A program made the translations under genes and the position numbers. Below are positions 1 through 22,167 of a stretch of DNA of 25,029 nt, piece after piece. Numbering within the stretch: the first letter of the stretch is position 1; each line of letters opens with the position of its first letter. The notes under the pieces are model-generated. The model worked only from the letters and a program-made list of their open reading frames with translations. It did not search any database and was not told the origin of the DNA. The DNA is from a virus (lineage: Duplodnaviria > Heunggongvirae > Uroviricota > Caudoviricetes): positions 1 through 25,029 of the IMG/VR virus record IMGVR_UViG_2802429227_000004; one strand, written 5' to 3'.

Positions 1-159
1 ATGAAAAACATTGCAGCTATCAAACGTAATAACCGCAAGATTCACGCTCGTAAGTTCCTGTCTACGCCAGAAGGAAAAGCCTGGCTAGAGCGTAAACAGA
101 GAGAGAACGAAGAAAGAAAACTCCTTAGTGAGTTGAAATGGCTTAGAGAGGATTTCTGA
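1..159 (+). CDS. Hypothetical small basic protein (52 aa); may be the 3' part of a longer gene cut by the window edge
   Basis: ATG at position 1 in frame to TGA at 157..159; K/R-rich; below the ORF-track length cutoff. Confidence 0.25.
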   Translation: MKNIAAIKRNNRKIHARKFLSTPEGKAWLERKQRENEERKLLSELKWLREDF

Positions 160-430
160 AAATCTCCAGAACGCAACAGGACGCATTCTAACGCTGTTTT
201 CATTACTCGGTATAGGGATGTATAGGTGATGTGTGTTTAATGCGTCTGTGAGCTTGTTTTGTGCCTTATTTTGCATTTTCATAATGCAGGAGAGAACACG
301 GAAAGCCTTAAAATTAATTATTGGGGTATTTAAGGCTATTTTTAGGTTATTTAAGGGTATTAAACTTGATTTAATTGGTTAAAATATAAACAGATAGTTC
401 TGTATCTTATTGATTTATAAGGTTATTTTT

Positions 431-500
431 AAATAAAGGTAAATAAAAAATAAATAGCCATAAATAGCTATAAATAGCTATAAATACATCTAAATACCTA
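431..500. repeat. Tandem degenerate decamer repeats (TAAATAGCTA-like, about 5-6 copies)
   Basis: taaatagcca / taaatagcta / taaatagcta / taaatacatc / taaataccta read head to tail at 451..500, with similar taaata units just upstream. Confidence 0.7.
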
Positions 501-513
501 TATCCCTTCCCTT

Positions 514-897
514 ATGGCTAGATTGCGAGAGGTGCTTAACGCGATTTTCAGCGCCCCCCGATCTGGAAAATCCAGAATCCCCAAATATCAGCAAGGAATT
601 TTCTTGCGTAATCAACATCGTTTTTACCTATTAAATCATTACACAGAAAGCCTTTCTGTAATGTCTCTCACTAAACTTTCACTAAACACGAGAATGATCG
701 GTTTTATGTCGGATCAGATGCTAGAAACAGCACCACGTCTCACAAGGGCTGTAAGCGATGAAACCAGTGTTTATGCGGGTGCAGGTCAAAATATAGGCCA
801 AAATCCATTTAACATAATAAACGTAATATGCACTAAGGAACACATAGAACGCCTTGAATTGATGTATCAGGGGAAAAGTGATGGATTTTTTACGTAG
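514..897 (+). CDS. Hypothetical protein (127 aa)
   Basis: ORF-track ORF; no convincing RBS upstream (cccttccctt before the ATG); no recognisable motifs. Confidence 0.3.
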   Translation: MARLREVLNAIFSAPRSGKSRIPKYQQGIFLRNQHRFYLLNHYTESLSVMSLTKLSLNTRMIGFMSDQMLETAPRLTRAVSDETSVYAGAGQNIGQNPFNIINVICTKEHIERLELMYQGKSDGFFT

Positions 898-977
898 GAG
901 CACGAGAGGGCTTCTGTTGACTTTTGTATGCTATGAAATATAATTAAAGGTTTTTTGTTTTTATCGTGTGATGTAGT

Positions 978-1421
978 GGATTACACAGGGGGATAGATTA
1001 AATGGTGTTCTGTTTATACAGGTTTATTTGTTAGATCAACAATTTGGCATTTCTAAACAGATGTTTGAACGTTGCCAAATGTATTGACAACACAAGAAAA
1101 GGGCTTGCTATGCCACGCATTACACGAAATAAGGCTGTAAAAACAAAATAAATTTTAAAATTTGCACAAACGAGAAAACTCGTTCAGAAACAAGCAGAAT
1201 AATTTTTAGCCAACAATTTCTGATGGTGCTCTGTAAGCCGCATTACACAAGGCTTTGCGAAAGTGATGTAAAAGTGAAGAAAGCTAACATTGCACTTTGA
1301 AGCCATTTTTCATTGGATTTTTTAGTAGGGAATTACACAGGGAATAGAGAGCATTATTCTATGATTTACACAGGGAATATAGGGGATTATGGCACACACA
1401 TAGAAAGGCATTACACAGAGT
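978..1421. repeat. Iteron family 1: about 6 dispersed direct copies of a CATTACACAG-like motif
   Basis: ggattacacaggggg (~980), cgcattacacgaaat (~1119), ccgcattacacaaggc (~1241), gaattacacagggaatagag (~1333), gatttacacagggaatat (~1366), ggcattacacagagtg (~1409). Confidence 0.65.
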
Positions 1422-1464
1422 GAGTGCTATGTGATGATTGGTAGTAACGGTAGGTCATAGTGAA

Positions 1465-1602
1465 CTACCCCCACAGAATTCTGTTAATCTTAACTTTTAA
1501 AGAGATTTTTACCCTAACAAAATTCTGTTACCCCACCCTAACAGAATTCTGTTAGACACCCCCACAGAAAACTGTTAGACACCCCCACAGAATTCTGTTA
1601 CC
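1465..1602. repeat. Iteron family 2: 5 copies of a C-rich flanked palindrome, CCCCCACAGAATTCTGTTA
   Basis: Copies at ~1465, ~1511, ~1531, ~1557 and ~1580; core ACAGAATTCTGT is a perfect palindrome, as expected for a dimeric DNA-binding protein site. Confidence 0.7.
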
Positions 1603-2160
1603 TATTAGATCATTTATTAAATTACTTATTAAATTATAATATTATATATTTATTTATATGATCTTTTGCCTTCCGGCGTTAGCTTCACTCTCTGGCAAGC
1701 AGCCTTACTCCGCTACCTTTCGGGCTTCGTGGCTGGCCCGTTCCGCTCACACCGAAAGCAAAGCGTTACTTTCTTCGTGTAACTATCGTTGGCGGTAACG
1801 CCCACGAAGAAATACTATTGCGCTGTGCGCAGAAGAGTAATCACCTAACCAATCATACTGATTGCTTACGTGTTAACTCTCTCTAACTCTTAATTACCCT
1901 CCTACATTTAATAACTCTCGTTATTCTCTGTAGTTGTGTAATTACTCGAAGAGAGAGCGGCTAAAGCTCAATTACACTCTGCTTTCCTCGTGTAATTTCA
2001 CTAAGCCTCAATACAATTCCACTTCCACATTCTGTAGTCGTGTAATTGTTTTCGGTGGAAAAGCCAGAGGCGACACCGAAAGAGAATTCTGATCTTATTA
2101 ATCTTATCTATCTTAGTTATCTTACTTATCTTACTTACTTTATCTACTTTATTATTAATA
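1603..2160. promoter_or_regulatory. Origin-associated non-coding region: AT-rich tract (1603..1670), structured GC-richer segment with inverted repeats, GTGTAATT/AATTACAC repeats, TATCTTA repeats (about 2095..2150)
   Basis: No credible ORF; inverted repeat ttcttcgtg...cacgaagaa near 1770..1815; repeated ttctgtagt(t/c)gtgtaatt units near 1925 and 2025; atctta x5 around 2100..2140. Confidence 0.4.
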
Positions 2161-2678
2161 ATAGCTTTATAAGCTCTCTGTAGCTCTCTGACGCAAGAAA
2201 CAGCATTCAGGAAGGGAATCACCTTAGAAAAGTGTTCTTTGCGTCATAATGTGTTTTATGAAGGATTCAGAGGTGTTTCATAACAGGAATGTATAGAGGA
2301 TACTTTAATTAATTAAAAATAAGGGGTCTAAATGCTTCTCTAACAGCATTAAGCAGGGTAGAGAATGGAAACGCATTGTCTACATATATAATCTCACTAC
2401 AGGGCTTTACAGAGCGTTTTATAAAGTGACTCTCTGTTTTATATTTACCATTACCTTCTCATACACCTAACAAATACAAAATAAGCCCCTTAAATAAGCC
2501 TCTGGCGAGCTAAACAGCCATTAGATAAGGCAATGTATTTCTTTTATCAAAATCTCGTTAGAACGCGTTTTAGAGCGTTTTAGCGGATAATGAAGAATAG
2601 CACTACACAGAAGAGCACGAATAGCTAAGAAAAAATGTAAGTGCATGAAAAAGATCAGATTTTTTATGAAAAGGTATT

Positions 2679-2712
2679 GACAAATGTTTCTTTATATGTA
2701 ATAATAGGTATT
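2679..2712 (+). promoter_or_regulatory. Sigma70-like promoter candidate upstream of 2816 gene
   Basis: TTGACA at 2679..2684 followed by AT-rich -10-like hexamers (tatatg/aataat) about 17 bp downstream. Confidence 0.3.
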
Positions 2713-2815
2713 AGAGGGACAGAAAAACATTCTTCTCTAAATAATCAAAATCAATGCACTTTGAAGCCGTCAGGCTTGCAAGGTGTTTTTCTTTTAACTG
2801 AATAAGGAGTTTTTT

Positions 2816-3004
2816 ATGAAATGGTTTACCCCGGAGCACGTCGTCTCGGCATTTAAAAAAGGTGAGCTTACACGCCACCAAGTAGTAATGAATCGTAATA
2901 TGGCAAGGAGTCGAGGTTATCCAGAGCGAGCAGCTTGCTTCAATGAAGCACTCAAGATTATTGATGAATTAAGAAAAAATGAAAAAGAATCTGAAACAGA
3001 GTAA
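2816..3004 (+). CDS. Hypothetical small protein (62 aa)
   Basis: ORF-track ORF with AAGGAG RBS 7-8 nt upstream of the ATG. Confidence 0.5.
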   Translation: MKWFTPEHVVSAFKKGELTRHQVVMNRNMARSRGYPERAACFNEALKIIDELRKNEKESETE

Positions 3005-3023
3005 AGAATAGAAGGAGAAAACT

Positions 3024-3191
3024 ATGAGCGAAACCAAGAAACCAATTCCGCGCACTTACCTACACGTTGACCCTGAAATCTTCAAGGTTTTATTTGCTGA
3101 AGCCAAGAAAAGGCAAATTATGGTCAGTGATTTGATGTTAGAAATCATTACTGAAGCAGCAGAGAACATCAAACAAAAAAAGGGTAAGTGA
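3024..3191 (+). CDS. Small ribbon-helix-helix-like (CopG/Arc-type) putative regulator (55 aa)
   Basis: Not in ORF track (<60 aa). GAAGGAG RBS then ATG at 3024, TGA at 3189..3191. Translation MSETKKPIPRTYLHVDPEIFKVLFAEAKKRQIMVSDLMLEIITEAAENIKQKKGK has a beta-strand then helix pattern typical of RHH proteins. Confidence 0.45.
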   Translation: MSETKKPIPRTYLHVDPEIFKVLFAEAKKRQIMVSDLMLEIITEAAENIKQKKGK

Positions 3192-3242
3192 TCCTCATTC
3201 ACTTTAGTAGCGCATTAAGCGTGATTTATAAGGAGATTTTTA

Positions 3243-3896
3243 ATGATTAATGAAGAACAATTTGTAAAAGTTCCTATGTGGATTCTAAAAATAAGCCAAG
3301 TAAACGGGCATAAATTTACAGATAGTGCTAAAAACCTTTACTGCTATCTGAAAGGGTTTGATCGTGCATTTCCCTCTTACGCTAAGATAGGCGATGTTTT
3401 TGGCATAACACCAAGAGCAGCAGAGGAAAGGGTTAAGAAATTGCTCGAAATGGGATTAATTATAAAAGATGCACGACCAGGAAGTTCTAATGTCTATCAA
3501 GTGGTAGATATTCCACAAGAAGAAGCTAGACAAGAAGCCAAGACACAACAAGAAGCTACTGTTAAAGCTGTTCCTGATCAGCTTCCCCCTACGGAAGATA
3601 ATAAAGAGTCTTCTTTTGATGTTCTTGATGATTGGGATGCGCCTTTGCCGTGGGAGACGGAAGAAACACCTGTTTCATCAAGTGAAAAAGTAACTAATGA
3701 TAATGAGGAGGATGTGTTAGAGAATTTTGCCTCTCTTATCTGCCAGGAGAAAAACACCAGAACAGGAGGATCATCATTTATAGAATTTGCAAATTCACTA
3801 GCTTATAGACACGGGCTAAAACGACCAAATGGTATTGAGGCATATTTTGCTAAGAAACATCCCAAAGTATATGAAGACTTTGATATTCCATTTTAA
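3243..3896 (+). CDS. Putative replication initiator-like protein with winged helix-turn-helix N-terminal domain and acidic C-terminal region (217 aa)
   Basis: AAGGAG RBS; N-terminal segment (VPMWIL...NLYCYL...YAKIGDVFGITPRAAEERVKKLLEMGLII) resembles HTH domains of plasmid/phage Rep proteins; acidic DVLDDWDAPLPWETEE tail; sits next to iterons. Confidence 0.5.
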   Translation: MINEEQFVKVPMWILKISQVNGHKFTDSAKNLYCYLKGFDRAFPSYAKIGDVFGITPRAAEERVKKLLEMGLIIKDARPGSSNVYQVVDIPQEEARQEAKTQQEATVKAVPDQLPPTEDNKESSFDVLDDWDAPLPWETEETPVSSSEKVTNDNEEDVLENFASLICQEKNTRTGGSSFIEFANSLAYRHGLKRPNGIEAYFAKKHPKVYEDFDIPF

Positions 3897-3907
3897 TAAG
3901 GAGGGTT

Positions 3908-4186
3908 ATGATTCAATATTTAGTAAAAAATCAAGTAGACAGAATTCAGTGTAATGACACAGGAAAACGCATCTACGAAACACTTGCTTACCTCTATAAA
4001 GGAAAGCCAACACCGCTAAAATATAGCGATGTGTTACATCGAGCAGGGTGCTCTGAAGATGGTTTAAAATTCTGGCTGAAACAGCTATCAAACTTCGGTG
4101 TTATAGAGATTAAAGAATTATCTTTCTCTACATTCAATCTCAAAAGACTGGATAAAGAAATAGACTTCATCTATTCCACTCTCTAA
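3908..4186 (+). CDS. Hypothetical protein (92 aa), possibly a small DNA-binding protein
   Basis: ORF-track ORF with AAGGAGGG RBS; immediately follows the Rep-like gene. Confidence 0.5.
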   Translation: MIQYLVKNQVDRIQCNDTGKRIYETLAYLYKGKPTPLKYSDVLHRAGCSEDGLKFWLKQLSNFGVIEIKELSFSTFNLKRLDKEIDFIYSTL

Positions 4187-4318
4187 AATCTCTCTATGTA
4201 ATTAAAATATAAAAGGAAAACATTATTATGATAGTAGCTATGTATTGGTTATTGTTCTTTCTCACGTTAGAAACATATTTCGGGGTGTTTTCCTTTAAAA
4301 GAAAAGGAAAAGTAAATA

Positions 4319-4726
4319 ATGGCAAAAAGAAAAAACAACGTTGTTAAGAAAATCGGTGATTCAGCTTCTCTTCTAAGTAAACCTAAATCTATTCTAAGAC
4401 GTAAAGACTTTAAAGAGCTAGTTACGCTCACCAAGCATAATAGCGCCCCTGGCGAATGGAAAACAGAGATCATAGAACATTCTCCCTCTGTGCCTTGTGG
4501 AGATGAATTTAACGCCTTACAAGAAATCTTATCTTCAACACCTGGCGTATTCTGGAAACCTAGAAAAAGAAAAGAGTATATTGTTAGTTCTGACGAACTC
4601 CGCAAATACCAGATTTTAGGATTTGAAGACTATAACCACTACGTCGGTTATCTCGCCACCAATGGCCTAAATAATTTAGTTCCTGAATTCCATTTAGATA
4701 ATGATGATCACTATGGAGACTTTTAA
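4319..4726 (+). CDS. Hypothetical protein (135 aa)
   Basis: ORF-track ORF, basic N-terminus; antisense ORF 4267..4605 treated as a shadow. Confidence 0.5.
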   Translation: MAKRKNNVVKKIGDSASLLSKPKSILRRKDFKELVTLTKHNSAPGEWKTEIIEHSPSVPCGDEFNALQEILSSTPGVFWKPRKRKEYIVSSDELRKYQILGFEDYNHYVGYLATNGLNNLVPEFHLDNDDHYGDF

Positions 4727-4727
4727 T

Positions 4728-5063
4728 ATGAACAAAAACACGTATGACACAATTTATTCACTAATTAATTATTATGAGGATGATTACCTCCTGCCTTTAA
4801 ACCGTGCTGAACTTGAAGCACACAAAAACTCCACGCCAGCGGCACTAAATGAGGCGTTTAAACACTGGGATTTAGCTGTGAATGCCTTTGAGATGCTCTG
4901 TAAGCGTGTAGAGATGCTCTGTAAGCGTGAAAACGCATACCTGACAGCCGATCAGATATGGGAGCTATCAAACTGGATAGAAGATATTGAATCTGATGTT
5001 CGCTATGTGGGAGATGGCCTTATCGAACTCGCTCAACGCTTAGCCATTATCACAGAAGAATAA
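4728..5063 (+). CDS. Hypothetical protein (about 111 aa) containing a 21 bp tandem duplication
   Basis: ORF-track ORF 4701..5063; ATG at 4728 preferred because it follows the upstream stop with GGAGA about 10 nt upstream. In-frame tandem repeat gagatgctctgtaagcgtg at 4890..4931. Confidence 0.5.
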   Translation: MNKNTYDTIYSLINYYEDDYLLPLNRAELEAHKNSTPAALNEAFKHWDLAVNAFEMLCKRVEMLCKRENAYLTADQIWELSNWIEDIESDVRYVGDGLIELAQRLAIITEE

Positions 5064-5092
5064 AAAAAGCAACAAAAAAGTTGTAAAATATC

Positions 5093-5121
5093 TTGACATT
5101 TCATATATTGTATGTTAATAT
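5093..5121 (+). promoter_or_regulatory. Strong sigma70 consensus-like promoter
   Basis: TTGACA (5093..5098), 17 bp spacer, TAATAT (5116..5121). Confidence 0.6.
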
Positions 5122-5127
5122 AATTAT

Positions 5128-5345
5128 ATAGGGTGATTATTTTTCCTTTATTGGTTCGATATTAAAAATTCTTCTTGTCGTTAAAGGGGAGTAAAATCTC
5201 CGCTCCCCGCTTCTCCTCCTCCTTAAGTGTCATTATTACCTCTTTTTTCCTTTGTTATGCATACATCTTGGAGTATGCATAACATAGGGTAATTACATAG
5301 GTACAAGTTAATAAAAGGCGGCTCTAAATGCTGCCTTTTATTTTG
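5128..5345 (+). ncRNA. Candidate small RNA or structured leader/attenuator (about 215 nt) between promoter and intrinsic terminator-like hairpin
   Basis: Begins just downstream of the 5093 promoter; hairpin ggggag...ctcccc (~5186..5208); perfect palindrome ttatgcatac-N8-gtatgcataa (5255..5282); hairpin aaaaggcggc-tctaaat-gctgcctttt followed by a T-rich run (5313..5345); no convincing ORF on the + strand. Confidence 0.3.
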
Positions 5346-5406
5346 CCCGTTATACAACTTAAAAGTTGTATTTCTTACTTTAAACAAGGTAACAAGGTTT
5401 ATATAA

Positions 5407-5619
5407 ATGTTGTTTTTAAATGATAAAGAGCAAATCATCAAGTATCGCGATGAAATGCTAAAGATCAATCCACAAATTACCGAAATGGTAGCTAAATACG
5501 CTGGGTGTTCTGTCGAAGAAGTGGAACGTTGTGTTGAAAAATATTTTTCTCCTTCTTCTCCGTCTACACCTTCCCTTAATGAATTAATCAAATTAAAAGC
5601 TAAGGAGATTACTAAATGA
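5407..5619 (+). CDS. Hypothetical small protein (70 aa)
   Basis: ORF-track ORF; 4 nt ATGA overlap with the next gene suggests translational coupling. Confidence 0.45.
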   Translation: MLFLNDKEQIIKYRDEMLKINPQITEMVAKYAGCSVEEVERCVEKYFSPSSPSTPSLNELIKLKAKEITK

Positions 5620-5978
5620 TTATTGATTTAGACACTCTATTTCCAGTTCGAAAGACTTTCACAGATATTGTAAGTTATTGTACTGATCCGTTTGCCTCTG
5701 TAGAAAGCAAGGTTTTTGCTTCTCTTCCTGCTGATGTTGAATGCGGCGACTTGATCACCAGAACTGGCGCTAAATATGTATCAGGAGATGATATCTATGT
5801 TGTTATGAGTGAGTTTTTAACGGCTGGAGACAACAAGCCTGTAGATGTGCTACGTAGCAATGCTGGCCTTGTCTGCATCAAAGCTGATGCGCTGAATGCT
5901 GTAAGTGAAGCAGCAAAAACAGCATTAATTAAAAAAGGCTTCCAGCTTGAAGGGTTCCACTCTGTTTTCACTTCTTAA
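5616..5978 (+). CDS. Hypothetical protein (120 aa), first gene of a putative structural-like module
   Basis: AAGGAG RBS; tightly linked to the 342 aa gene. Confidence 0.55.
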   Translation: MIIDLDTLFPVRKTFTDIVSYCTDPFASVESKVFASLPADVECGDLITRTGAKYVSGDDIYVVMSEFLTAGDNKPVDVLRSNAGLVCIKADALNAVSEAAKTALIKKGFQLEGFHSVFTS

Positions 5979-5996
5979 TAAAAGGAATAATAATAA

Positions 5997-7025
5997 ATGA
6001 TTCTAGGCAATGATTACGTTGATTTGATCCCTCTGTTCCAGGCACACAACACTAGAAATTATCTACTCTCTACCCTTGATTTTACGGATTCTGTAGGGGT
6101 TACATCTCATAAAGTAGCTGTTTCCCAGCTTGTCGAAAGCAACGAATCTCTCTTTAACAAAGAGACAAGCCGTTTTAGTTCTGAACACAATGTTACTAAG
6201 CGTGAACAAGGTAAAGAATGGCTTATTGAAATCCCGTATTTTCTTCGTGAAGATGTGATCCGTCCTTCTGATGTTCAAGGCAAGCGTAAGCCTGGCACTG
6301 ATTTTCAGGAAACACTCACTGATATCTATGCTGACTATGTTGCTAAACACCACGTAGCGTATCAGCGTACAAAAGAGAGCGTGTTGGCGGCTTCTTTGTT
6401 CTCTGGCAAAACTTACACGCCTAAAACTGATGATGTTCTTATCGAGTGGGGCAAGCTGTTTAACGTATCAGCTATGAAAGCCACTGTGAACGCTTCCAGC
6501 ACTGACACCACGAAGATTTTTAAAGAATTTGATCAGATTGCTACCAATATTTTTGAAATCACACAAAGCCAGGCGTCAGCGGTAGAAAGAATTGTTGTTT
6601 TCTGTAAACCGGAAGCCTTCTCTGCAATTCGATTCTCTGCGGGTATGGCAAACGCATTCCAGTATGTAAGCCCACTGGAAGAAGGGAACGTTGTGTATCA
6701 GCGTCGTGACCTGCTGCCAGGGGTGACAGCGTTCACTATTCCAGGAACTAACATTGATGTTATTAAACTGGTAGATCCGCTACATCTTGCACATATGACC
6801 GCAGACGCTGTAGCTGTGCCTAAATTCGCTAAAGGCTCTAACGTATATCAGAACATCTACGGGGCTGCTTCCAGCACCTTTGAACTGATTAATGCCGCTC
6901 CCGCTGAGGTTTATAGCTACAGCTATGAATCTTCTCGTGGTGATGCTGTTAACGTTGTTACAGAGAATAGCCAGATGGTTGTAAACCACGGTGTAGGCTT
7001 CTCTGTTCAAATCACTGTGAAATAA
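5997..7025 (+). CDS. Hypothetical protein (342 aa); tentative homolog of the HK97-fold major capsid protein family of T7-like phages (gp10-like)
   Basis: Long ORF with RBS. Segment RIVVFCKPEAFSAIRFSAGMANAFQYVSPLEEGN (DNA about 6585..6700) matches, from memory, the T7 gp10 region RVFYCDPDSYSAILAALMPNAANYAALIDPEKG (pattern FCxPxxxSAI...MxNAxxY...EG); similar size to gp10A. Not verified by any search. Confidence 0.5.
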   Translation: MILGNDYVDLIPLFQAHNTRNYLLSTLDFTDSVGVTSHKVAVSQLVESNESLFNKETSRFSSEHNVTKREQGKEWLIEIPYFLREDVIRPSDVQGKRKPGTDFQETLTDIYADYVAKHHVAYQRTKESVLAASLFSGKTYTPKTDDVLIEWGKLFNVSAMKATVNASSTDTTKIFKEFDQIATNIFEITQSQASAVERIVVFCKPEAFSAIRFSAGMANAFQYVSPLEEGNVVYQRRDLLPGVTAFTIPGTNIDVIKLVDPLHLAHMTADAVAVPKFAKGSNVYQNIYGAASSTFELINAAPAEVYSYSYESSRGDAVNVVTENSQMVVNHGVGFSVQITVK

Positions 7026-7043
7026 TATTTTAACGTGTAATAG

Positions 7044-7080
7044 AGGCGTGGCGTGTATTCACGCTTCGCCTTTTTTTATT
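7044..7080 (+). terminator. Rho-independent terminator candidate after the 342 aa gene
   Basis: ggcgtggcgtg-tattc-acgcttcgcc imperfect hairpin followed by ttttttt. Confidence 0.5.
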
Positions 7081-7111
7081 TATTTTTTAAATTTTGAGAG
7101 GTGATTAAAAT

Positions 7112-7315
7112 ATGGAAGTGATTTTGAAATCAAAAAATGGTTTACACGTACATTTAGATGCTAATGATTCTAGAGGCTTGTTAAATCTGAAATATCTATG
7201 TTCTCTTTTAGATGTTCCATATGAAGGCGTAAAAGCCCGTATGTTCAGACTAAACGAGAGTATTGATCAGGCTCTACACCATTTCTTAAGTAAAGAAGGT
7301 GGTAAAAATGATTAA
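7112..7315 (+). CDS. Hypothetical small protein (67 aa)
   Basis: ORF-track ORF with GAGAGG RBS region. Confidence 0.45.
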   Translation: MEVILKSKNGLHVHLDANDSRGLLNLKYLCSLLDVPYEGVKARMFRLNESIDQALHHFLSKEGGKND

Positions 7316-7329
7316 TAAGGGGATTTTAA

Positions 7330-9162
7330 ATGTTAGAAATTAACACTTCTAAAATTAAGAACACAGTTACATTTAGTGTAGATAAAGACAGCTTGAAAAA
7401 AGCGAAAGACTCTATTACAGGCTTAAAGAAATTCGCCGAAAATATCAAGCCAGCTAAGCTGAGATTTGATAGTGTCACTAAAGGCTATAAGAAAGCACAA
7501 AGTGAAGTAGACAAGATTGCTCAACAGAAAGCTAAAACAGAAAAGCAGAATCAAAGAGCACAAGCTGCCGCAGCAAGAGCACAGGCAAGGCAACAGCAAC
7601 AAATAGCAGCACGTAAAGAGAAAGCAGAATTAAAGCTCCTCGATGTGTCAAGCTCTATCAGTGCAATGCACCGCCTTTCTGTAGCTGAACAATACAAAGC
7701 TATTGCACAGGCGCGTGAGATAGCCAAACAATACGAACAAGGGGCTATCTCGCTTGCACGTATGAATAGTCAGATGAAACGCCTACAACAGCAACAACGT
7801 AAGATTAATGGCAACAGAAAAGCTCAATTAGCCCCCGTTAAGGGAGGATCAGGGAATTCCGCCACGATGGGCGCTCTGTTATTTGGAGGCGCTACGGCTG
7901 CCGCTGGCGTGATGGCTGTTAGTAAAGCCTCTGAATTTATGGCTAACAGCTTCGCTAACGCAGAGACGCAAGGGGAGCTAATTCAACGGGCCAAGCTGGG
8001 CGGTGTAGACGTTAACCAGATGTATAATATTACAGAATGGGCGTATAAAAACGGCGTTGACTCTATGATGGGTGATCAAGGGGCTAGGAAATACCTGGAT
8101 CAGATGAAAGATGTTAGGGAACGTGCCGCAAAATCCTATAGTGAAGCTGAATTGGTGAAAGACAAGAAAACCGGAAAATCTGAATGGAAAGGCGGTGATA
8201 ACGCTATTAATGAACTTCTAAACATCGGTGTTATTAACAAAAGCGACCTTAAAAAATTTGCTGATAATCCGGCTGGATTAATTTCTAAGGCTGTTAATGG
8301 AATGATGAAAAAAGGGTTTTCAGACTCCCAAATTGGACAACGTTTAGAAGACCTGGGCGATGATTTGATGCTTACGTCAAAATATTGGCAACGTTCCGTT
8401 AAAGATGTACAAGAAAGTATTAATCAGCAAAAAGCCTCTGGAAAATGGCTAACAGAAACACAGCAAGACTCTATTGTTAAATTCAGAGAACTAAACAGAC
8501 AGCTTTCACAGCTTTCTGATGCAAGACAAGTAGCATTCGTAGACGGCTTTATGAAATCTCTTGATCCAAAAGTAACGGAAGAGTTTATGAAAAACCTTTC
8601 TAATCTCACTCCGTATTTTACGAAGCTGGGAGAAGCTACAGGAAGTCTCTTTGAGGCCATTATGAAGATTGTAAACTGGTTTAATCGTAATGATGATAAG
8701 ACAGATGCTATTCAGAAAAATTTAGGTGATGCACCGCCATTAAGCAATGACGGAATGAAACAGCATCTTTCTAATCTCGTTCCTGATCAATATAAAGGCG
8801 CTGGCACTGCAACAACAGCACCTGATAATAGTCATTCTCTCTTTAATACGATTAAGGGATGGCTTTTCGATGATAATGCTTCTTCTGTGTCAGATGTAAA
8901 AATGTCAGTCAATGAAGCACCGATAAGCAATCTCAAACAGGGTGCTTTAAATAATCTTGCAATGACAACTCCGGCTTATAATTTATCTCCTGTGTTTAAT
9001 CTGAATCCTACATTTGAAGTGGTAACAGAGGTTCCTCTTACTATTAATTCAGACACATCAAGATTAAGCGATTATGTGGATTTTACAGCGAGAGCAAGTC
9101 GGGATAGCTTCTTGAAATCATTAACATTAACCAGCTTATCAGGACAATCTAACGGCGGGTAA
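7330..9162 (+). CDS. Hypothetical large protein (610 aa): N-terminal K/Q/A-rich coiled-coil region, Gly/Ala-rich hydrophobic segment, then C-terminal globular region; tape-measure-like or ejection/internal-virion-like architecture (tentative)
   Basis: AAGGGG RBS; AQAAAARAQARQQQQIAARKEKAELK coiled-coil-like stretch; GGSGNSATMGALLFGGATAAAGVMAV hydrophobic segment; no Walker or nuclease motifs seen. Confidence 0.6.
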   Translation: MLEINTSKIKNTVTFSVDKDSLKKAKDSITGLKKFAENIKPAKLRFDSVTKGYKKAQSEVDKIAQQKAKTEKQNQRAQAAAARAQARQQQQIAARKEKAELKLLDVSSSISAMHRLSVAEQYKAIAQAREIAKQYEQGAISLARMNSQMKRLQQQQRKINGNRKAQLAPVKGGSGNSATMGALLFGGATAAAGVMAVSKASEFMANSFANAETQGELIQRAKLGGVDVNQMYNITEWAYKNGVDSMMGDQGARKYLDQMKDVRERAAKSYSEAELVKDKKTGKSEWKGGDNAINELLNIGVINKSDLKKFADNPAGLISKAVNGMMKKGFSDSQIGQRLEDLGDDLMLTSKYWQRSVKDVQESINQQKASGKWLTETQQDSIVKFRELNRQLSQLSDARQVAFVDGFMKSLDPKVTEEFMKNLSNLTPYFTKLGEATGSLFEAIMKIVNWFNRNDDKTDAIQKNLGDAPPLSNDGMKQHLSNLVPDQYKGAGTATTAPDNSHSLFNTIKGWLFDDNASSVSDVKMSVNEAPISNLKQGALNNLAMTTPAYNLSPVFNLNPTFEVVTEVPLTINSDTSRLSDYVDFTARASRDSFLKSLTLTSLSGQSNGG

Positions 9163-9195
9163 TTCCCGCCATAACATTACAAGGAAATTATTATT

Positions 9196-9909
9196 ATGGC
9201 GACCGCCGGGATTTTAACCATACGTGCAGCAAATACTCCAGAACAACACGTTCAGGCTGTTTACAAAGCAGAACAAGATATAAACTCTACAAAAAACGAA
9301 AATAGCAAAGCTAATAAAACAAAAGGAGAAAATGGATTTGCTATTGTTACCAGTGGGCTGGCATCTTCTGGCAATGACGTTTATGAAAATTATATGGCAC
9401 TGGCTTTTGACAGTGTAGACGATGTGAACGTGAGACGTTCGGCAGATGTTACAAGCTACCCCGTAGAAAATGGTGCTACTGTGTCTGATCACGTTCAAAT
9501 TAAAAACAATAAGTTTTCTCTTAAAGGTAGGATCACTGAAACACCGATTAAAAGCGATCCTGGCTTGCTAAAGAGTGCAGGGGTGAACGGGAACAGAAGA
9601 TCATTAGCTATTGATTACCTGAATCAGATTATGGACAGTAGACAGCCTTTTCTTCTTGTTACAGAAAATAAAACTTTTGAGAACGTTGTTTTAACAGGCA
9701 TCGAATACACAGAAGAGGCAAGCGAATCCCTGGTATTTGATCTTAGCTTTGAGCAGATCAGGCTCGTTTCGTATGGCACTGTAAACACTGTAGCTATCAA
9801 AACACAGCCATCTAAGAACATCGGGGCTAATATGAAAAAACGTGTTAACACTGAAAAATCAAGTAGTGAAGGTGAAGACACTATTACTCCTGCCTTTAAA
9901 CAGGAATAG
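9196..9909 (+). CDS. Hypothetical protein (237 aa), last gene of the + strand operon
   Basis: AAGGA RBS; no signal peptide; followed by an inverted repeat shared with the convergent integrase gene. Confidence 0.55.
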   Translation: MATAGILTIRAANTPEQHVQAVYKAEQDINSTKNENSKANKTKGENGFAIVTSGLASSGNDVYENYMALAFDSVDDVNVRRSADVTSYPVENGATVSDHVQIKNNKFSLKGRITETPIKSDPGLLKSAGVNGNRRSLAIDYLNQIMDSRQPFLLVTENKTFENVVLTGIEYTEEASESLVFDLSFEQIRLVSYGTVNTVAIKTQPSKNIGANMKKRVNTEKSSSEGEDTITPAFKQE

Positions 9910-9950
9910 CCGTAAACGCCTCTAAAACGCTCTGTAACGATGTAATTATA

Positions 9951-9984
9951 AAAGAGGCTACCAATCTATGTTGAAGCCTCTTTA
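9951..9984. terminator. Inverted repeat between convergent genes (possible bidirectional terminator)
   Basis: aaagaggct ... agcctcttt, a perfect 9 bp stem with a loop of about 16 nt. Confidence 0.35.
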
Positions 9985-9990
9985 TTGCGT

Positions 9991-11325
9991 CTATGGCGTT
10001 GTTTTACGCCTTAAATTTGATTTTTTATTGATTGATAAGCCTTTCTCTATTTCAGGGTAGCGTAGAAGCTCAATATATTTTTTAAGCTCTACTGGAGAAG
10101 CTGCATTCTTGCTATATGTGCGGAATGTCTCTGTATTACCGCGTGTATGGCCCAGGAGAAGGGCGATCCTGTCTTCTGGAATTTGATTTCGATCAAGAAG
10201 CTGTGCTACTCCGTGTCTCAGAGAATGAAACACCTTCCTTTCTGTTCCCTTTTCCCCTAAAGCCTTTCGTTTAGCCCTGGTAAATCTCTGCGTGTGCCAC
10301 GTGGAACGCTTGCCGTCTGCACGTTCTGTGATGCTGGCGTGATAGAACAAAAAGCCATTATGAGGCTTTTCACGCAGCGACAACACCAACGGAGTGATAA
10401 GGCTATGTACAGGCACAACACGTGCCGCAGCTTTCGTTTTTCCCTGTGTGATTTCAAAACACAGCACACCTTCGATCTCTTTCACATCGTCTATTGTGAG
10501 ACTTGCTATCTCATTGATCCGCATACCTGTATATAAACCGATAAGACACAAAGCCATCATTTCTTTGTTTTCTGCTGAATTACCGGAAAATACTTGCAAC
10601 ACCTGCAATAGCTCTTTGTTAGAAAATGCCTCGTAGCTCTCTCTACTTTGTGCCACATCAAGCCTATGCCCTCGCCAGGGGGAGAGCGCCCTTTCTGGTG
10701 CATCGTGGTAACGTGATGAAGCTAACTCCCATAGCTGGGCCATTGGGCTGATATAATTTGCAATTGATTGTTGTGAAAGGGTTTTTTGCATGTGTTCAAT
10801 CCAGCCTGTAACAGTGGTGCGGCTCACATCTTGCAATGCAATATCAGGCTTTTTACGGTAGGAGAGAAACATCTCTACCGCTTTTCTTGCCTTAGCTAAA
10901 GTGGCTGGCTTCTTCTTCGTGCTGTTAATTGTCAGGTAGATTTCAAGAATTTTAAGCAATGACGGACACGAAGACGCTGTATCTTGCATTCTGGTAGCTG
11001 TTTTGGCGTATTTAGCCTTACTGCGTAACAGCTCCAGCGTGTTCTCTATTGTGCTGTTTACAGGAGCGACACTCTCGCGTAAGCAATGGTATTCATCTGC
11101 AATCTGATCACGCTTTCTACGTGCAACACGAAGGTTACTTGTATGCAGACTCCTGACAAACGTCCTTTTTCCTTCAAAAAAGGGCTGCATATACACAGGC
11201 AGCGTGATCCTTAGATAGTAGTTACCGTAAGAATCACAGATTATGTATTGATTGGGCTTGTATCTCATAAACTCCCCGGCTAAAGTGTCGGAGCGTTTGT
11301 AATGTGAAAATTGATTGTAACGCAT
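9991..11325 (-). CDS. int: Tyrosine site-specific recombinase (integrase), 444 aa as given; alternative start at the second Met (about 11268)
   Basis: C-terminal catalytic signature: GMRINE (Arg), HSLRHGVAQ (His-x-x-Arg), LLGH (His), TFRTYSK (Tyr nucleophile). Confidence 0.85.
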   Translation of the reverse strand: MRYNQFSHYKRSDTLAGEFMRYKPNQYIICDSYGNYYLRITLPVYMQPFFEGKRTFVRSLHTSNLRVARRKRDQIADEYHCLRESVAPVNSTIENTLELLRSKAKYAKTATRMQDTASSCPSLLKILEIYLTINSTKKKPATLAKARKAVEMFLSYRKKPDIALQDVSRTTVTGWIEHMQKTLSQQSIANYISPMAQLWELASSRYHDAPERALSPWRGHRLDVAQSRESYEAFSNKELLQVLQVFSGNSAENKEMMALCLIGLYTGMRINEIASLTIDDVKEIEGVLCFEITQGKTKAAARVVPVHSLITPLVLSLREKPHNGFLFYHASITERADGKRSTWHTQRFTRAKRKALGEKGTERKVFHSLRHGVAQLLDRNQIPEDRIALLLGHTRGNTETFRTYSKNAASPVELKKYIELLRYPEIEKGLSINKKSNLRRKTTP

Positions 11326-11447
11326 AGAAAATGATGATTTTTTCTATAAGATTCAATCAATTAGTAATGGTCGTAGGTGATGGCATTAACACGAGATTAA
11401 TCGAGTGTTTTACTCCTATTATCGGCACCATTCTAACGTCTCCCCAA

Positions 11448-11597
11448 GTCTACTCAAGTATTTAAAAAACTCTTATAATCCGCATGTTAGCGCCCCTTTT
11501 AGTCTTTTGATGTCTACTTAAGTACCCCAAAATCTACAGTCAATTGGGGGTACTTTTGGGGGTATTTGCTGTTCGGTTTAGTGGAGGTACCCCCAAG
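11448..11597. repeat. Direct and inverted repeats in the 271 bp spacer between the two integrase genes (candidate att core or integrase binding sites)
   Basis: gtctactcaagta (11448..11460) and gtctacttaagta (11512..11524); inverted pair taccccaaaa (11523..11532) / ttttgggggta (11553..11563); extra ggtacccccaag at 11586..11597. Confidence 0.5.
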
Positions 11598-12811
11598 TGA
11601 AACTCAATGCCCGTCAAATAGACACTGCCAAGCCAAAAGAGAAGGCTTACAAGCTGGCTGATGGTGGTGGTCTGTATCTCTTGGTAAAACCTAGTGGAGG
11701 AAAATATTGGCGCTTCAAATATCGTGTAGCTGGTAAAGAGAAGCTGTTAGCACTAGGTGTGTATCCTGAAGTTACCTTGGCTGATGCTCGTGCAAAACGT
11801 GAAGAAGCTAAAAGGGGGATCGCTGGGGGTATCGATCCGATGGAAGCGAAACGAGAGGAAAAGATTGCCCGGGAAACGCAGTTAAACAACACCTTCAAAG
11901 ATATTGCCCTTGAGTGGCACAGCAGCAAATTAAAAAAATGGTCTGCTGGTTATGCTTCAGACATCCTCGAAGCCTTCAACAAAGATGTGTTCCCTTACAT
12001 TGGCAAAAAACCAATCGCCGAAATCAAACCACTTGAACTGCTGAATGTGCTGCGGCGCATCGAGGGGCGCGGTGCTACCGAAAAAGCCAAAAAAGTGAGG
12101 CAGCGATGCGGGGAAGTTTTCCGCTATGCAATTGTCACTGGACGTGCTGAGTATAACCCTGCACCGGATCTCACCAGCGCGATGCAAGGTCATGAATCTA
12201 ATCATTATCCTTTCCTCACAGCCAAAGAATTACCTGATTTTTTCAAGGCATTGTCCAGTTACTCAGGAAGTGCATTGGTTGTTATGGCGGCTCGTCTACT
12301 GATTATCACCGGTTTGCGGACTGGCGAACTGCGCGGTGCATTATGGGATGAAATCGATCTCAACAAGGCTATCTGGGAGATACCTGCTTCACGGATGAAA
12401 ATGCGTCGCCCTCATGTGGTGCCTTTGTCTAAGCAGGCTCTTTCGCTTATTGGGCAGATTAAAGAATTAACTGGCAATTATCCGCTTATGTTTCCCGGCC
12501 GTAATGATCCAAGGAAAACAATGAGCGAGGCTAGCATAAACCAAGTATTTAAACGCATCGGCTATAACGGAAAGGTTACTGGTCATGGATTCCGGCACAC
12601 CATAAGCACCATTTTGCATGAGCAGGGCTATAACACCGCGTGGATAGAGACACAGCTCGCACACGTCGATAAAAACTCAATTCGTGGCACATACAACCAT
12701 GCGCAATATCTGGATGGTCGCCGGGAGATGCTCCAGTGGTATGCCGACTATATGGATTCGCTCGAGCATGGCGGAAATGTGGTGCATGGTGAGTTCGGAA
12801 AATGCGGGTGA
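11597..12811 (+). CDS. int: P4-type tyrosine integrase (404 aa), GTG start
   Basis: N-terminus KPKEKAYKLADGGGLYLLVKPSGGKYWRFKYRVAGKEKLLALGVYPEVTLADARAKREEAK is the hallmark arm-binding domain of P4-family integrases; catalytic HGFRHT ... QLAHVD ... RGTYNHAQY. Confidence 0.9.
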   Translation: MKLNARQIDTAKPKEKAYKLADGGGLYLLVKPSGGKYWRFKYRVAGKEKLLALGVYPEVTLADARAKREEAKRGIAGGIDPMEAKREEKIARETQLNNTFKDIALEWHSSKLKKWSAGYASDILEAFNKDVFPYIGKKPIAEIKPLELLNVLRRIEGRGATEKAKKVRQRCGEVFRYAIVTGRAEYNPAPDLTSAMQGHESNHYPFLTAKELPDFFKALSSYSGSALVVMAARLLIITGLRTGELRGALWDEIDLNKAIWEIPASRMKMRRPHVVPLSKQALSLIGQIKELTGNYPLMFPGRNDPRKTMSEASINQVFKRIGYNGKVTGHGFRHTISTILHEQGYNTAWIETQLAHVDKNSIRGTYNHAQYLDGRREMLQWYADYMDSLEHGGNVVHGEFGKCG

Positions 12812-12909
12812 CTGGTTGAGTATACAGTAGTAGACTTTGAGCACCTAAAAAGGCTGATGCAAACAGAGCTGGCTCGGCCTTAACATTAGACCGCTTGAAG
12901 GGGGAGAAT

Positions 12910-13626
12910 ATGCCAATTGTGGAAAACATTCCTGACTTATCCCACTGGCGAACAATACAGGAGTTTTCTATCACCCAGGCCGCTTTATTGTTGGCCGGAA
13001 TTGATCCTTATGATTACCCTACTCTTGAACATGTCAGAGATAATAAACATGAACGTTGGAAAATGGCATGGGGGTTGGCTAATGGAATGGTAACAGCCAT
13101 CCGTCGTGGTGTCTTAACTCCTGTTGAATGTACCTCTGAAATAGTTGAATACGATAATTGGGGAAATGTTTGTGATATTGAGTACAAACGTCTGACATCA
13201 GCGCAACTGACCGATCGTGCATATGAGATAAGCAAGGATAAAACTTTAATTAGTCGCCATTCTTTATATGAGTGGATAAAAAATGAGAGCGTTGATTTTG
13301 CGAGATGCCCTCGCCCTATACCTGTTAAGGAAGTTAATCCGCCAGCAATCATTGAATCATCTCATCAGGTAATTAATCCTGACGAGTATTTGTGTACTTA
13401 TGGGCATAAGAGTGATGGGTTGGAGTATGTGCAGGATGCTATAAGAGAACTATGGTCGACGTATGACCCAGATGACCCACAGACGGCTCCGACAGAGCAT
13501 GAGGTACTTGAATATTTGAAAAAACGGGGGGCGGGTTCTAATGTTGCTAGGGCTGTGAATCTGATTTTAAGGCCTGAACATCTGAAGCGTATTGGTAGAA
13601 GACCAAAAAAACAAAAAGTTAAATAG
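12910..13626 (+). CDS. Hypothetical protein (238 aa) between int and alpA
   Basis: ORF-track ORF 12895..13626 begins at a TTG; ATG at 12910 preceded by AAGGGGGAG is preferred. No recognised motifs. Confidence 0.6.
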   Translation: MPIVENIPDLSHWRTIQEFSITQAALLLAGIDPYDYPTLEHVRDNKHERWKMAWGLANGMVTAIRRGVLTPVECTSEIVEYDNWGNVCDIEYKRLTSAQLTDRAYEISKDKTLISRHSLYEWIKNESVDFARCPRPIPVKEVNPPAIIESSHQVINPDEYLCTYGHKSDGLEYVQDAIRELWSTYDPDDPQTAPTEHEVLEYLKKRGAGSNVARAVNLILRPEHLKRIGRRPKKQKVK

Positions 13627-13881
13627 TGGTCGCTATTCCAGAAAAATGGTGGTTTCCTTTCAAAAAAAAGTAACCACCAATGCAGATTAAATCGTAAGAA
13701 CAGTAATTTTTCTTCGTGTTTCACGTCAGCATGATACTTAAAATAGTAAACGCCATTATTAAAAAAAGGTGGAGCTATTTCACTGAAATGGTATTCGCCA
13801 TTCATAATGGTAAGCATCTATAAATATCACTTTTCTTAATGCAAGCTATGTACACCTTTATAGACGTTACAAGGTGAATAT

Positions 13882-14079
13882 ATGGCAAACTCTCTTATTC
13901 GTTTAACGGAAGTTCAGCGTAGAACTGGATATAGCAAGGCATGGATTTATCGCCTTATGGGGCAAGGTAAATTTCCTGCATCAGTTAAAATTGGCTCGCG
14001 AGCTATTGCTTTCGTTGAGAGTGAAATTGACGAGTGGATTAATCAGCGTATTGCGGAATCACGCGGAACAGCTACCTGA
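13882..14079 (+). CDS. alpA: AlpA-family phage transcriptional regulator/excisionase-like protein (65 aa)
   Basis: LIRLTEVQRRTGYSKAWIYRLMGQGKFPASVKIGSRAIAFVESEIDEWI matches the AlpA HTH family; position just after a P4-type int; AAGGTGA RBS. Confidence 0.85.
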   Translation: MANSLIRLTEVQRRTGYSKAWIYRLMGQGKFPASVKIGSRAIAFVESEIDEWINQRIAESRGTAT

Positions 14080-14157
14080 TTAAATGGCTACGGGGCCAGA
14101 AGCCCCAACTATCCACTAGCAAATAAAAAGTAACTTAATTCGATAGCAGGAGTTTTT

Positions 14158-15006
14158 ATGAAACAGCGAAAAACGCCCGTACAGGGGCAGGGCTTCGTTC
14201 GGCCTGAAAACCAGAATCTGCAAAATTTCGGCGAAATTATCCCGGTTATTTCCGGCGTTATTGGCGGACGTGAAACCAATATTGTTAGCGCCAGAGCGTT
14301 GCATAAGGCGCTGGGTGTGAAGCGTGATTTCACAACCTGGATTAAAGGACGCATTGATGAGTACGGATTTAAAAAGGGCGTGGATTTTGAAGTTGTAGAT
14401 AATTTGTACTTTGATTCCCCGAAACGGGGGAACCAAAGTGTAAATATTGAACAGTTTGATTTTGATTGGACAACAAAGCGCGGCGGTGATCGTCGCAGTG
14501 AAGACTATTTGATCTCCACGAACATGGCGAAAGAACTGGCGATGGTCGAGCGCACCGAACAGGGCCGCGCCGATCGTCAGTACTTCATCAAATGCGAGGA
14601 GGAGCTACACAAGGTAGCGCCAGTGCGTTCCGCAGCGTTACGCCGGGAACTGAAAGCCCGTATCTCCGTTGCCAGCTACTTTAAGCCGATGTGTGCCGCG
14701 CTGGAGGCGTACCGGGCTGAACTGGGTAAAAACACACTCCAGCACCACTACACCACGGAAGCCAATATGCTGGCGCGTATCGTGCTGGGTGGCATGACTG
14801 CAAAACAGTGGACGCAGGCGAACGGCATCACAGGCGAACCACGCGACCACATGAGCACGTTGCAGCTTGAGCACCTTTCTTACCTTGAGCAGAGCAATAT
14901 CACGCTGATTGAGTTAGGCCTGGACTACCACCAGCGGAAAGCTGAATTAATTCGTCTTTCGCAGCGTTGGTTAGCCCGTCGCATGGAGGAAAACAGCCAT
15001 GTGTAA
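14158..15006 (+). CDS. Phage antirepressor-like protein (AntA-like N-terminal domain, KilA-C-like C-terminal region), 282 aa
   Basis: Segment VSARALHKALGVKRDFTTWIKGRIDEYGFKKGVDFEV resembles AntA/Rha-type antirepressor N-terminal domains; AGGAG RBS. Confidence 0.65.
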   Translation: MKQRKTPVQGQGFVRPENQNLQNFGEIIPVISGVIGGRETNIVSARALHKALGVKRDFTTWIKGRIDEYGFKKGVDFEVVDNLYFDSPKRGNQSVNIEQFDFDWTTKRGGDRRSEDYLISTNMAKELAMVERTEQGRADRQYFIKCEEELHKVAPVRSAALRRELKARISVASYFKPMCAALEAYRAELGKNTLQHHYTTEANMLARIVLGGMTAKQWTQANGITGEPRDHMSTLQLEHLSYLEQSNITLIELGLDYHQRKAELIRLSQRWLARRMEENSHV

Positions 15007-15420: not shown

Positions 15421-15678
15421 CTATTCCTGCTCTTTAACATTGCCATGCCGCGATGTTTTCCAGGTATGCGACCCCATTTTTGTGCGCCTGTACTCTTTAA
15501 GGAATTTCTCAAGGATAAACGCACAGGGCGCGAATCTGTCTGACTCATATTCGTACGCTATCTTTCTGCGCTGTCTTTTCCGTGCCGGTGATGGTGTATT
15601 GGTCGATTCTTTGTTGGTCATTCTGTGTACCTGTAAAGCAATGCGCCGGAGTTCCTCACACCACGGCGATGATAGTTA

Positions 15679-17531: not shown

Positions 17532-17535
17532 AACC

Positions 17536-19628: not shown

Positions 19629-19655
19629 TACGAAATTTATAAGCTGAAACGTAAA

Positions 19656-19991: not shown

Positions 19992-20011
19992 TTGTAACGA
20001 TGGGGCAAAGC

Positions 20012-22103: not shown

Positions 22104-22113
22104 ACAATCCGTG

Positions 22114-22145: not shown

Positions 22146-22167
22146 AATGTTCAACGTGGGGGATTAG

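Follow-up and report, generated by a model that had tools for sequence, protein, structure and literature searches.

In the origin of phage lambda, four to five iterons, each containing a dyad, are directly followed by an AT-rich tract. In plasmid RSF1010, binding of RepC leads to unwinding, and the ssiA and ssiB hairpins become exposed on complementary strands for the primase RepB′ (PMC8567376). The replicon of the Vibrio satellite PLE is defined by modular covariation of the initiator's DNA-binding domain with the iterons, and Odn of phage ICP1 cuts the PLE origin at these iterons (PMC8263062). Here we compare with these systems a locus in a 25,029-nucleotide stretch of viral DNA (IMG/VR record IMGVR_UViG_2802429227_000004, positions 1 to 25,029; the window), which is E. 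coli chromosome at the tRNA-Thr gene thrW and carries two integrated elements in tandem. The first (element 1, some 12 kb, window ~1–11420), inserted at thrW, contains the region 900–2200, in which a first-pass annotation had noticed two families of repeats, an AT-rich tract and a structured core; all of these were recovered in place and above chance. The sequence evidence gives good support to the reading of this region as the origin of an integrated phage satellite. A replication origin joined to a hairpin platform, with a packaging signal alongside, is the best explanation of the whole, and one that we consider probable, with room for doubt.

Five 20-bp iterons, ACCC(C/T)(C/A)ACAGAATTCTGTTA with the internal dyad ACAGAATTCTGT, were delimited at 1467–1600 by repeat search and by allele pairing. 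Allowing up to three mismatches, CCCACAGAATTCTGTTA is found at 1470, 1514, 1538, 1561 and 1584, against a whole-window expectation of 0.13, and the start-to-start spacing of the copies is 44, 24, 23 and 23 bp. The predicted initiator (Rep), a protein of 217 residues encoded on the plus strand at 3243–3896, has a winged-helix DNA-binding domain at its N-terminus (allele 1), joined by an acidic linker to a C-terminal part that varies. It matches replication-initiation and O-like families in PHROG (best E = 3e-10), and in Pfam it has only a weak match to HTH_36 and HTH_24, with HTH_36 under the cutoff. Among 26 loci with an intact Rep, drawn from E. coli genomes and IMG/VR, the dominant iteron family pairs with the N-terminal allele of Rep in every case, five alleles corresponding to five families: MINEEQF... 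with CCCACAGAATTCTGTTA (the window's type), MIKHTKP... with CCCCTATCAAnnnTGATAC, MIKNIKT... with CCTAGGAAATGAGTTCC, MINQPTF... with GGTAGGTCACTGTGAGCT and MSKIKLI... with GTAACGATTCGTTAC. The iteron and Rep cassettes lie about 1.7 kb apart and assort independently of the type of hairpin domain between them, and their borders appear as breaks in sequence identity at 1455–1603 and 3254–3601. Because iterons and Rep alleles match at 26 of 26 loci, the iterons can be read as the Rep-binding sites of an origin; at the level of sequence, this pairing strongly implies that Rep binds 1467–1600 via its N-terminal winged-helix domain.

Comparison of the iteron families also revealed a lone leftover iteron of type 4, GGTAGGTCATAGTGAACT, at 1443–1460 on the plus strand, and single leftover iterons of other types are kept at every locus. 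At some loci from IMG/VR (L025 and L019), several iteron families are stacked in one origin to the left of the AT-rich tract; L025 holds 2, 2, 4, 6 and 2 copies of iteron types 1 to 5, respectively. Stacked and leftover iterons suggest either that cassettes often recombine or that selection favours escape from phage nucleases.

An AT-rich, GATC-rich tract directly follows the iterons in every relative. In the window this predicted DNA unwinding element measures 63 bp (1601–1663; 89% A+T, 11% G+C), has GATC at 1608 and 1660, and resembles the 13-mers of oriC (GATCATTTATTAA). Iterons of other sequences, again accompanied by the AT-rich tract, recur in Klebsiella, Enterobacter, Citrobacter, Cronobacter, Dryocola and a metagenome relative. 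The replication origin proposed in the first-pass annotation is thereby borne out: it has iterons, an AT-rich tract and an O-like initiator encoded in cis, and its alleles match throughout the sample. The layout resembles ori-lambda in that iterons with an internal dyad precede an AT-rich tract and in the relationship of Rep to O-like families. However, the lambda origin lies inside the O gene, whereas here it lies 1.6 kb upstream of rep with the hairpin domain and promoters between; element 1 has no gene for a P-like helicase loader, and the C-terminal part of Rep is unrelated and variable. The iteron origin adds a member to a known kind of origin, of which the hairpin domain and a polar motif, described below, are a new variation.

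The hairpin domain (~420 bp, 1664–2082), which was defined by folding, homologs and covarying helices, invariably stands directly after the unwinding element. In the window it runs from TTTTGCC, immediately behind GATC, to GCCAGAGGCGACACCGAAAG; it has 46% G+C, is rich in inverted repeats, and includes the boxes CCGCTCACACCGAA (1743–1756), GCGCTGTGCGC (1820–1830) and GGCTAAAG...CACTAAGCC (1959–2007). Local folding z-scores range from –5 to –8 on both strands across 1761–2000, and folding of the whole 441 nt gives z = –5.4 for the plus strand and –10.0 for the minus strand. Domains of the window's type (type A) are 96–99% identical among 14 E. coli loci, a degree of conservation that equals or exceeds that of the coding genes. 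Type-A homologs occupy the same position in Klebsiella, Enterobacter, Citrobacter, Cronobacter, Dryocola and the metagenome relative, where they begin with GATC(T/A)TTTGCC right behind the AT-rich tract and end with GTGCCAGAGGGCG. A second E. coli type (type B) is built as a modular array, with gain and loss of hairpin units, and only the boxes CCGCTCACA(C/A)CGAA and TGCGCTGTGCGCAGAA are common to both types. BLAST searches of the hairpin region against phage and plasmid collections (plasmid query 1600–2420) gave no match outside satellites.

Across genera, nine helices comprising ~255 bp in total are nearly all Watson–Crick paired while their sequences differ. The helices were verified by hand and by script; RNAalifold gave a poor consensus on a cross-genus MAFFT alignment, which we attribute to misalignment of the hairpins. 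The window's counterpart of a three-way junction (1770–1812) is formed by an outer stem (1770–1779/1803–1812) and an inner hairpin, GGCG-GTAA-CGCC (1791–1802), and is missing the first inner hairpin (I1) of other genera. In the five genera named above and the metagenome relative, the outer and inner junction stems still pair with changed sequences; depending on the genus, the inner stem upstream of GCGCTGTGCGC reads GGCG:CGCC, GCG:CGC, CCG:CGG, TGAC:GTCA, CTCG:CGAG or GGC:GCC. Since pairing is kept while the sequences change, selection appears to act on base pairing, and the region would therefore work at least partly in a single-stranded, folded state. A second distinct element beside the origin had been anticipated, and the 420-bp hairpin domain, conserved by compensatory changes across genera, is such an element.

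The other unusual component of the region is a dispersed hexamer, TT(A/G)CAC. Its extended form ATTACAC has 13 copies in the window where 3.1 are expected, a number reached in 0 of 100 shuffles, and ten of the 13 lie within 638–2046 (plus strand: 638, 980, 1119, 1242, 1332, 1410 and 1971; minus strand: 1936, 1990 and 2040). To the left of the iterons, plus-strand TT(A/G)CAC copies at 980, 1119, 1242, 1289, 1332, 1366 (a variant) and 1410, with another at 638, mark a region (980–1416) that E. coli lineages A and B have kept in common and that can still be recognised in other genera. In ten loci the motif has 28 forward and 5 reverse copies on the left, and 6 forward and 19 reverse copies on the right, in the hairpin domain (Fisher p = 4e-6, a value that overstates independence, to the detriment of our reading, because the loci are related). 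Left and right alike, the strand that bears the motif serves as template for the leading strand leaving the origin. Because the motif flips across the origin, it reads alike to forks leaving either way, and it is probably a strand-specific, fork-polar replication signal.

The first-pass annotation had taken the dispersed CATTACACAG repeats for a second class of iterons; this assignment was dropped, along with that of TT(A/G)CAC as a second Rep iteron family, as these sequences stay constant across loci that differ in Rep and in the palindromic iterons. Two other roles for the motif were rejected. A 55-residue protein encoded upstream of rep has two alleles or is absent, and does not qualify as a universal TT(A/G)CAC binder; a helper promoter was set aside since the motif shows no enrichment in phage pieces beyond overlaps with start and stop codons. 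A 62-residue protein encoded nearby is a possible binder. The left conserved region also holds a 17-nt box, CATTGCACTTTGAAGCC (1288–1304, plus strand), which recurs as a direct repeat at 2752–2768 in the leader of the replication operon. In general form, CA(T/A)TGCACTTTGAAGCC, one copy stands left of the origin and one in the operon leader, in the same orientation, and in an Enterobacter relative (L052; about 4126 and about 5440) both copies alter in parallel. The box may be an operator or an RNA-level control site.

On the other side of this region lies a candidate packaging or terminase site (517–562, minus strand), identified by its identity to phages. Its 46 bp are 95.7% identical to about 45 Stephanstirmvirinae phages and copy the inner end of a helper's direct terminal repeat; in phi92, the match (nt 318–363) runs across the end of the direct terminal repeat, annotated as 343 bp long. 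The repeat boundary falls between window positions 537 and 536, where the minus strand reads ...GAAAATCGCGTTA up to the boundary and AGCACCTCTCGC beyond it. Satellites of other genera, and the genome end of phAPEC8-type phages, retain the core GTGCTTAACGCG and the AAATATC downstream of it. Two alternative mimics exist in E. coli, a phi92-type and a phAPEC8-type, and E. coli relatives without the phi92-type block have a serine-recombinase block with an 83-bp match to phAPEC8-type genome ends. The terminal-repeat copies are at window 517–562 (extended, 513–590), L035:318–363 (phi92), L037:1501–1585 and L007:600–682. On the strength of these identities, 517–562 is likely to be a packaging signal and a marker of helper specificity, so that the packaging site suggested in the first-pass annotation is likely real, although it lies outside 900–2200. 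As in T7/T3-type phages and phi92, a terminal repeat is involved: the 46 bp straddle the inner end of the phi92 repeat and stand beside the origin; the difference is that only short islands are common to phage and satellite. Packaging of plasmids by T7 needs both a phage origin and the concatemer junction; here, packaging would be specified at 517–562, which would place origin and packaging signal side by side.

Other features of this flank may belong to the same function. An AT-rich stretch (317–500; 21% G+C) contains 10–11-bp phased repeats (TATTTAAGG; ATAAATAGCT, four copies), relatives from Klebsiella (L050) and Serratia (L054) have similar phased repeats beside the terminal-repeat copy, and the stretch may be bent DNA belonging to the packaging signal. 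The block 514–900 is the most conserved non-coding DNA in the lineage (98–99% identity), and ACGAGAGGGCTT at 902, which resembles GCGAGAGGTGCTT at 525, looks like a second cut site; on the basis of this conservation and the second site, 537–912 (minus strand) is a speculative candidate for the satellite's own terminal repeat. On the far side of the origin, a 22-nt island present only in lineage A (2311–2332, minus strand) is identical at 21 of 22 positions to phi92 147334–147355. The matching phi92 sequence lies where its non-coding right end starts, and the island is colinear with the terminal-repeat mimic.

The proposed mechanism would begin with binding of Rep to the iterons and opening of the adjoining 89% A+T tract. 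Unwinding would extend into 1664–2082, where the single strands would fold into the conserved hairpins, including the three-way junction, and these would form a priming or helicase-loading platform for a replisome that the satellite does not encode. Helicase or primase domains were not found among the element-1 proteins scanned, which took in some but not all of the small open reading frames (ORFs), and this result counts against our reading. As the satellite has no recognisable helicase or primase, the user of the hairpins would be a host or helper replisome, more likely that of a virulent helper of the phi92/phAPEC8 type than that of the host. Our best guess, by analogy, is that the hairpin domain is a single-stranded DNA platform for priming or loading, like the ssi sites of RSF1010; it could then show how a satellite without helicase and primase gets its DNA primed. 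The order of iterons, AT-rich tract and hairpin-forming sequences is that of the RSF1010/IncQ oriV (PMC8567376), and in both systems signals face opposite ways on the two strands. RSF1010, however, has two 40-nt hairpins together with its own helicase and primase, whereas element 1 has a multi-hairpin domain of 420 bp and neither enzyme is recognisable in it. Its sequence was not noticed to resemble ssiA or ssiB, but no dedicated comparison was run.

The principal competitor to a DNA platform is a structured non-coding RNA of ~420 nt, which might prime replication or form an R-loop, or might regulate the satellite or its helper in trans; its transcription would run either leftward, towards the AT-rich tract (minus strand), or rightward, starting inside that tract (plus strand). 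We regard it as unlikely, though not far-fetched. RNA II of ColE1 and the origin transcripts of T4 and T7 are parallels for a primer or R-loop former. A three-way junction with compensatory changes is typical RNA architecture, the window's minus strand has a z-score of –10 to –11.5, lineage A shows two minus-strand substitutions that turn U-A into U-G and G-U into A-U, and a possible leftward promoter, TTAGAC-18-TAAAGT, lies inside the phage-shared 22-nt island at 2311–2332. Three further observations lean towards RNA and away from our own reading: over the whole domain, the minimum free energy of the minus strand is below that of the plus strand in 6/6 genera; the minus strand is G-rich and the plus strand C-rich in all six; and some genera have GNRA-like and UUCG loops on the plus strand. 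However, the local hairpins fold equally well on both strands, and individual helices give conflicting clues to the strand. Internal mismatches in the local hairpins (GT 6, AC 6, other 22) are in a random ratio, with no wobble excess on either strand, and one loop is inverted between close relatives (TGAAA in L065, TTTCA in L052). A consensus scan found no minus-strand promoter in 2100–2700 and no terminator framing the domain, while the island with the candidate promoter is absent from lineage B and from other genera. The first-pass annotation had also raised a structured RNA; a known family is excluded, as the covariance-model search (Rfam 15) returned no match at gathering score in the window or in seven related loci, and only noise at E ≤ 10. 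DNA hairpins are favoured because of the folding on both strands, the lack of a G-U excess, the inverted loop, and the lack of a framing promoter or terminator.

The hairpin domain and its flanks could also be devoted to packaging or concatemer processing, with the stretch from 2332 to 537 on the minus strand imitating the helper's non-coding right end. The hairpins would in that case help to duplicate the terminal repeat or to load terminase, a role for hairpins that has been proposed for the T7 concatemer junction. The colinear islands of phi92 identity at 2311–2332 and 517–562 do bracket the region, in phi92 itself the right terminal repeat is preceded by 1.1 kb of non-coding DNA containing short AT-rich repeats and GC hairpins, and at 8/8 E. 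coli loci with long flanks the domain type (A or B) goes together with the capsid-gene lineage. We nevertheless consider this explanation distinctly improbable: the domain has no sequence similarity to any phage in the collection, types A and B each occur with either terminal-repeat mimic, the segment carrying the 22-nt island is absent from other genera that keep the hairpin domain, and the domain is always attached to the unit of iterons and AT-rich tract, not to the terminal-repeat mimic. More improbable still is that the palindromes and TT(A/G)CAC are duplex sites for a regulatory or partition-like protein that organises a nucleoprotein complex at the origin, such as the 62-residue protein, the small recombinase of the relatives or a helper factor, in the service of copy control, multimer resolution or silencing until a helper arrives. 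Such sites would agree with the over-representation and order of TT(A/G)CAC, with inverted motif pairs such as AATTACAC-N12-GTGTAATT at 1970–1997, with the gene for a small recombinase, serine or tyrosine, that most relatives have at the region's left margin, and with the presence of the 17-nt box in the operon leader as well. Yet the stems stay paired despite sequence change, which points to selection on pairing and not on a protein recognition sequence, and the window keeps all of these features without the small recombinase. An invertible DNA switch was rejected because no inverted copy of the domain occurs in about 45 loci.

The preferred reading, an iteron origin with a single-stranded hairpin platform, has to be held against several further observations. 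The nine helices were picked by eye, so that the scarcity of wobble pairs is partly a selection effect, and type B, divergent and modular in make-up, is better accounted for by a series of independent hairpin sites than by a single fixed fold. Unlike the hairpin domain, the C-terminal part of Rep lacks conservation across genera, and a partnership between the Rep C-terminus and the hairpin type was rejected for that reason. No DnaA box (TTATCCACA, up to one mismatch) was found in window 1–2900; DnaA boxes occur in many but not all plasmid iteron origins, and the lambda origin is without them. Sites for DnaA and IHF and Tus-Ter sites were discarded on sequence comparison by eye, the formal search being for the DnaA box only.

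Two proteins of lytic Stephanstirmvirinae phages share the DNA-binding alleles of Rep. The protein of phage Mt1B1_P17 (QNJ49226.1; L031:1540–2526) is 82% identical over Rep residues 1–119, and the N-terminus of muut_154 (L030:4232–5230), from phage muut, is that of Rep allele 2. In both, a satellite Rep allele (type 1 or 2) is followed by an HTH_36 domain equal to allele 3 and then by a C-terminal MUG113 domain, matched at or just under the Pfam cutoff, which we take to belong to the GIY-YIG clan. Since the phage proteins combine the same DNA-binding alleles with MUG113, the iterons would be their recognised target. These architectures suggest that Stephanstirmvirinae phages are helpers and that the iterons are contested, and the chimeras look like two-headed counterparts of ICP1 Odn aimed at satellite origins.

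In its workings the system resembles PLE. In both, the origin lies in non-coding DNA of an integrated satellite of a virulent phage, the iterons are semi-palindromic and the N-terminal domain of an initiator encoded in cis is the binder (here by prediction), and the DNA-binding domain is exchanged along with the iterons, as one module, against an unchanged background (PMC8263062). The phage chimeras, with the same DNA-binding domain fused to a domain of the GIY-YIG superfamily, extend the likeness to ICP1. However, the initiator is of the HTH_36/O-like kind here and RepA_N in PLE, so element 1 is not a PLE member. There are five alleles here against two, and the phage proteins have two tandem DNA-binding domains and MUG113 where Odn has T5orf172. 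For the 420-bp hairpin domain and the terminal-repeat mimic, no PLE counterpart is known to us. Together with its swappable initiator and iteron cassettes, its origin-directed nuclease-like phage genes and its copied helper genome end, the system would be an E. coli counterpart to Vibrio PLE–ICP1. We tentatively propose, as a possibility that falls short of likelihood, that the hairpin domain and the fork-polar motif form a new class of cis-acting origin module, a folded, single-stranded DNA or RNA platform with which satellites of virulent Stephanstirmvirinae phages capture a replisome that they do not encode, in an undescribed satellite family (~14% of complete E. coli genomes) engaged in a PLE/ICP1-like arms race with origin-directed nucleases of phages.

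Element 1 encodes a tyrosine integrase, the 217-residue Rep, a Phage_cap_E (lambda-E-type) capsid protein, a tape-measure-like protein of ~610 residues and a Dit-like tail protein; no terminase or portal is recognisable in it. Some part of 900–2800 is carried by 754 of 5426 complete E. coli genomes (about 14%), and element 1 has relatives in at least seven further genera, namely Klebsiella, Enterobacter, Citrobacter, Cronobacter, Dryocola, Serratia and Sodalis (L050–L065). No description of the family was found in the literature searched, and element 1 matches none of the satellite classes known to us (P4-like, PICI, capsid-forming PICI and PLE); it looks like a member of an apparently undescribed family. 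Region 900–2200 would define the replicon of a common E. coli satellite family. The implied helpers, phages of the phi92/phAPEC8 type, are under consideration for therapy, and satellites that parasitise them could affect phage performance. A 79-bp segment at the start of the Dit-like gene (9226–9304) is 91% identical to the gene for a 'tail tube initiator protein' in EC_OE_11, a 145-kb E. coli phage, and is another short piece common to the satellite and large lytic phages.

The non-coding region that surrounds the origin is indeed gene-free, as had been stated, although its length was underestimated at 1.9 kb: the gene-free stretch spans 160–2815 (~2.65 kb), and the RefSeq annotation is empty there in every related genome inspected. 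Across the whole stretch G+C is 36%, and a tRNA scan returned nothing. An ORF at 514–897 was rejected as a gene on account of its substitutions by codon position (9/21/15) and of frameshifts in several relatives. Two other suggestions for the second site were not upheld: the scanned proteins of element 1 contained neither a relaxase domain, which would go with an oriT, nor an HUH-type Rep, which would go with a single-strand origin of the rolling-circle kind. Consensus scans predicted two plus-strand promoters: a sigma-70-like one, TTGACT-16-TATAAT (917–944; 11/12 matches), directed rightward into the origin region and conserved in loci that have the 265–987 block, and a replication-operon promoter, TTGACA-17-AATAAT with an upstream TG (2677–2705). 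The latter falls in a block (2486–3250) conserved across all E. coli relatives. Between origin and operon, 9-bp tandem repeats (TTATCTNNC) occupy 2086–2140, within a segment (2083–2405) that other genera lack.

Two small plus-strand genes precede rep. The 62-residue protein (2816–3004) has no Pfam or PHROG match; alone among the small proteins, it was found in nearly all of the E. coli and IMG/VR relatives tested. The 55-residue protein (3024–3191), called ribbon-helix-helix in the first-pass annotation, has no domain match; its alleles are ~45% identical among satellites, and the gene is missing in loci with Rep type 3. Its DNA is 100% identical to a gene of phage muut (L030:4013–4180) directly before that phage's chimeric nuclease-like gene.

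Most relatives have a second, small recombinase gene, absent from the window, which lies at the left end of the non-coding region and points away from it. The product has 183–205 residues (291 in L062) and is of the serine type (L005:742–1293, L007:686–1237) or the tyrosine type (L012:419–997, L050–L065); multimer resolution and helper-triggered excision are possibilities for its role. The remainder of the window (11412–25029) is the second, unrelated element, 99% identical in other E. coli genomes, which encodes an integrase, a DUF5906/primase protein, an AntA/AntB antirepressor, and Icd-like and ProQ/FinO proteins, and which looks like a satellite of the P4 or PICI type.

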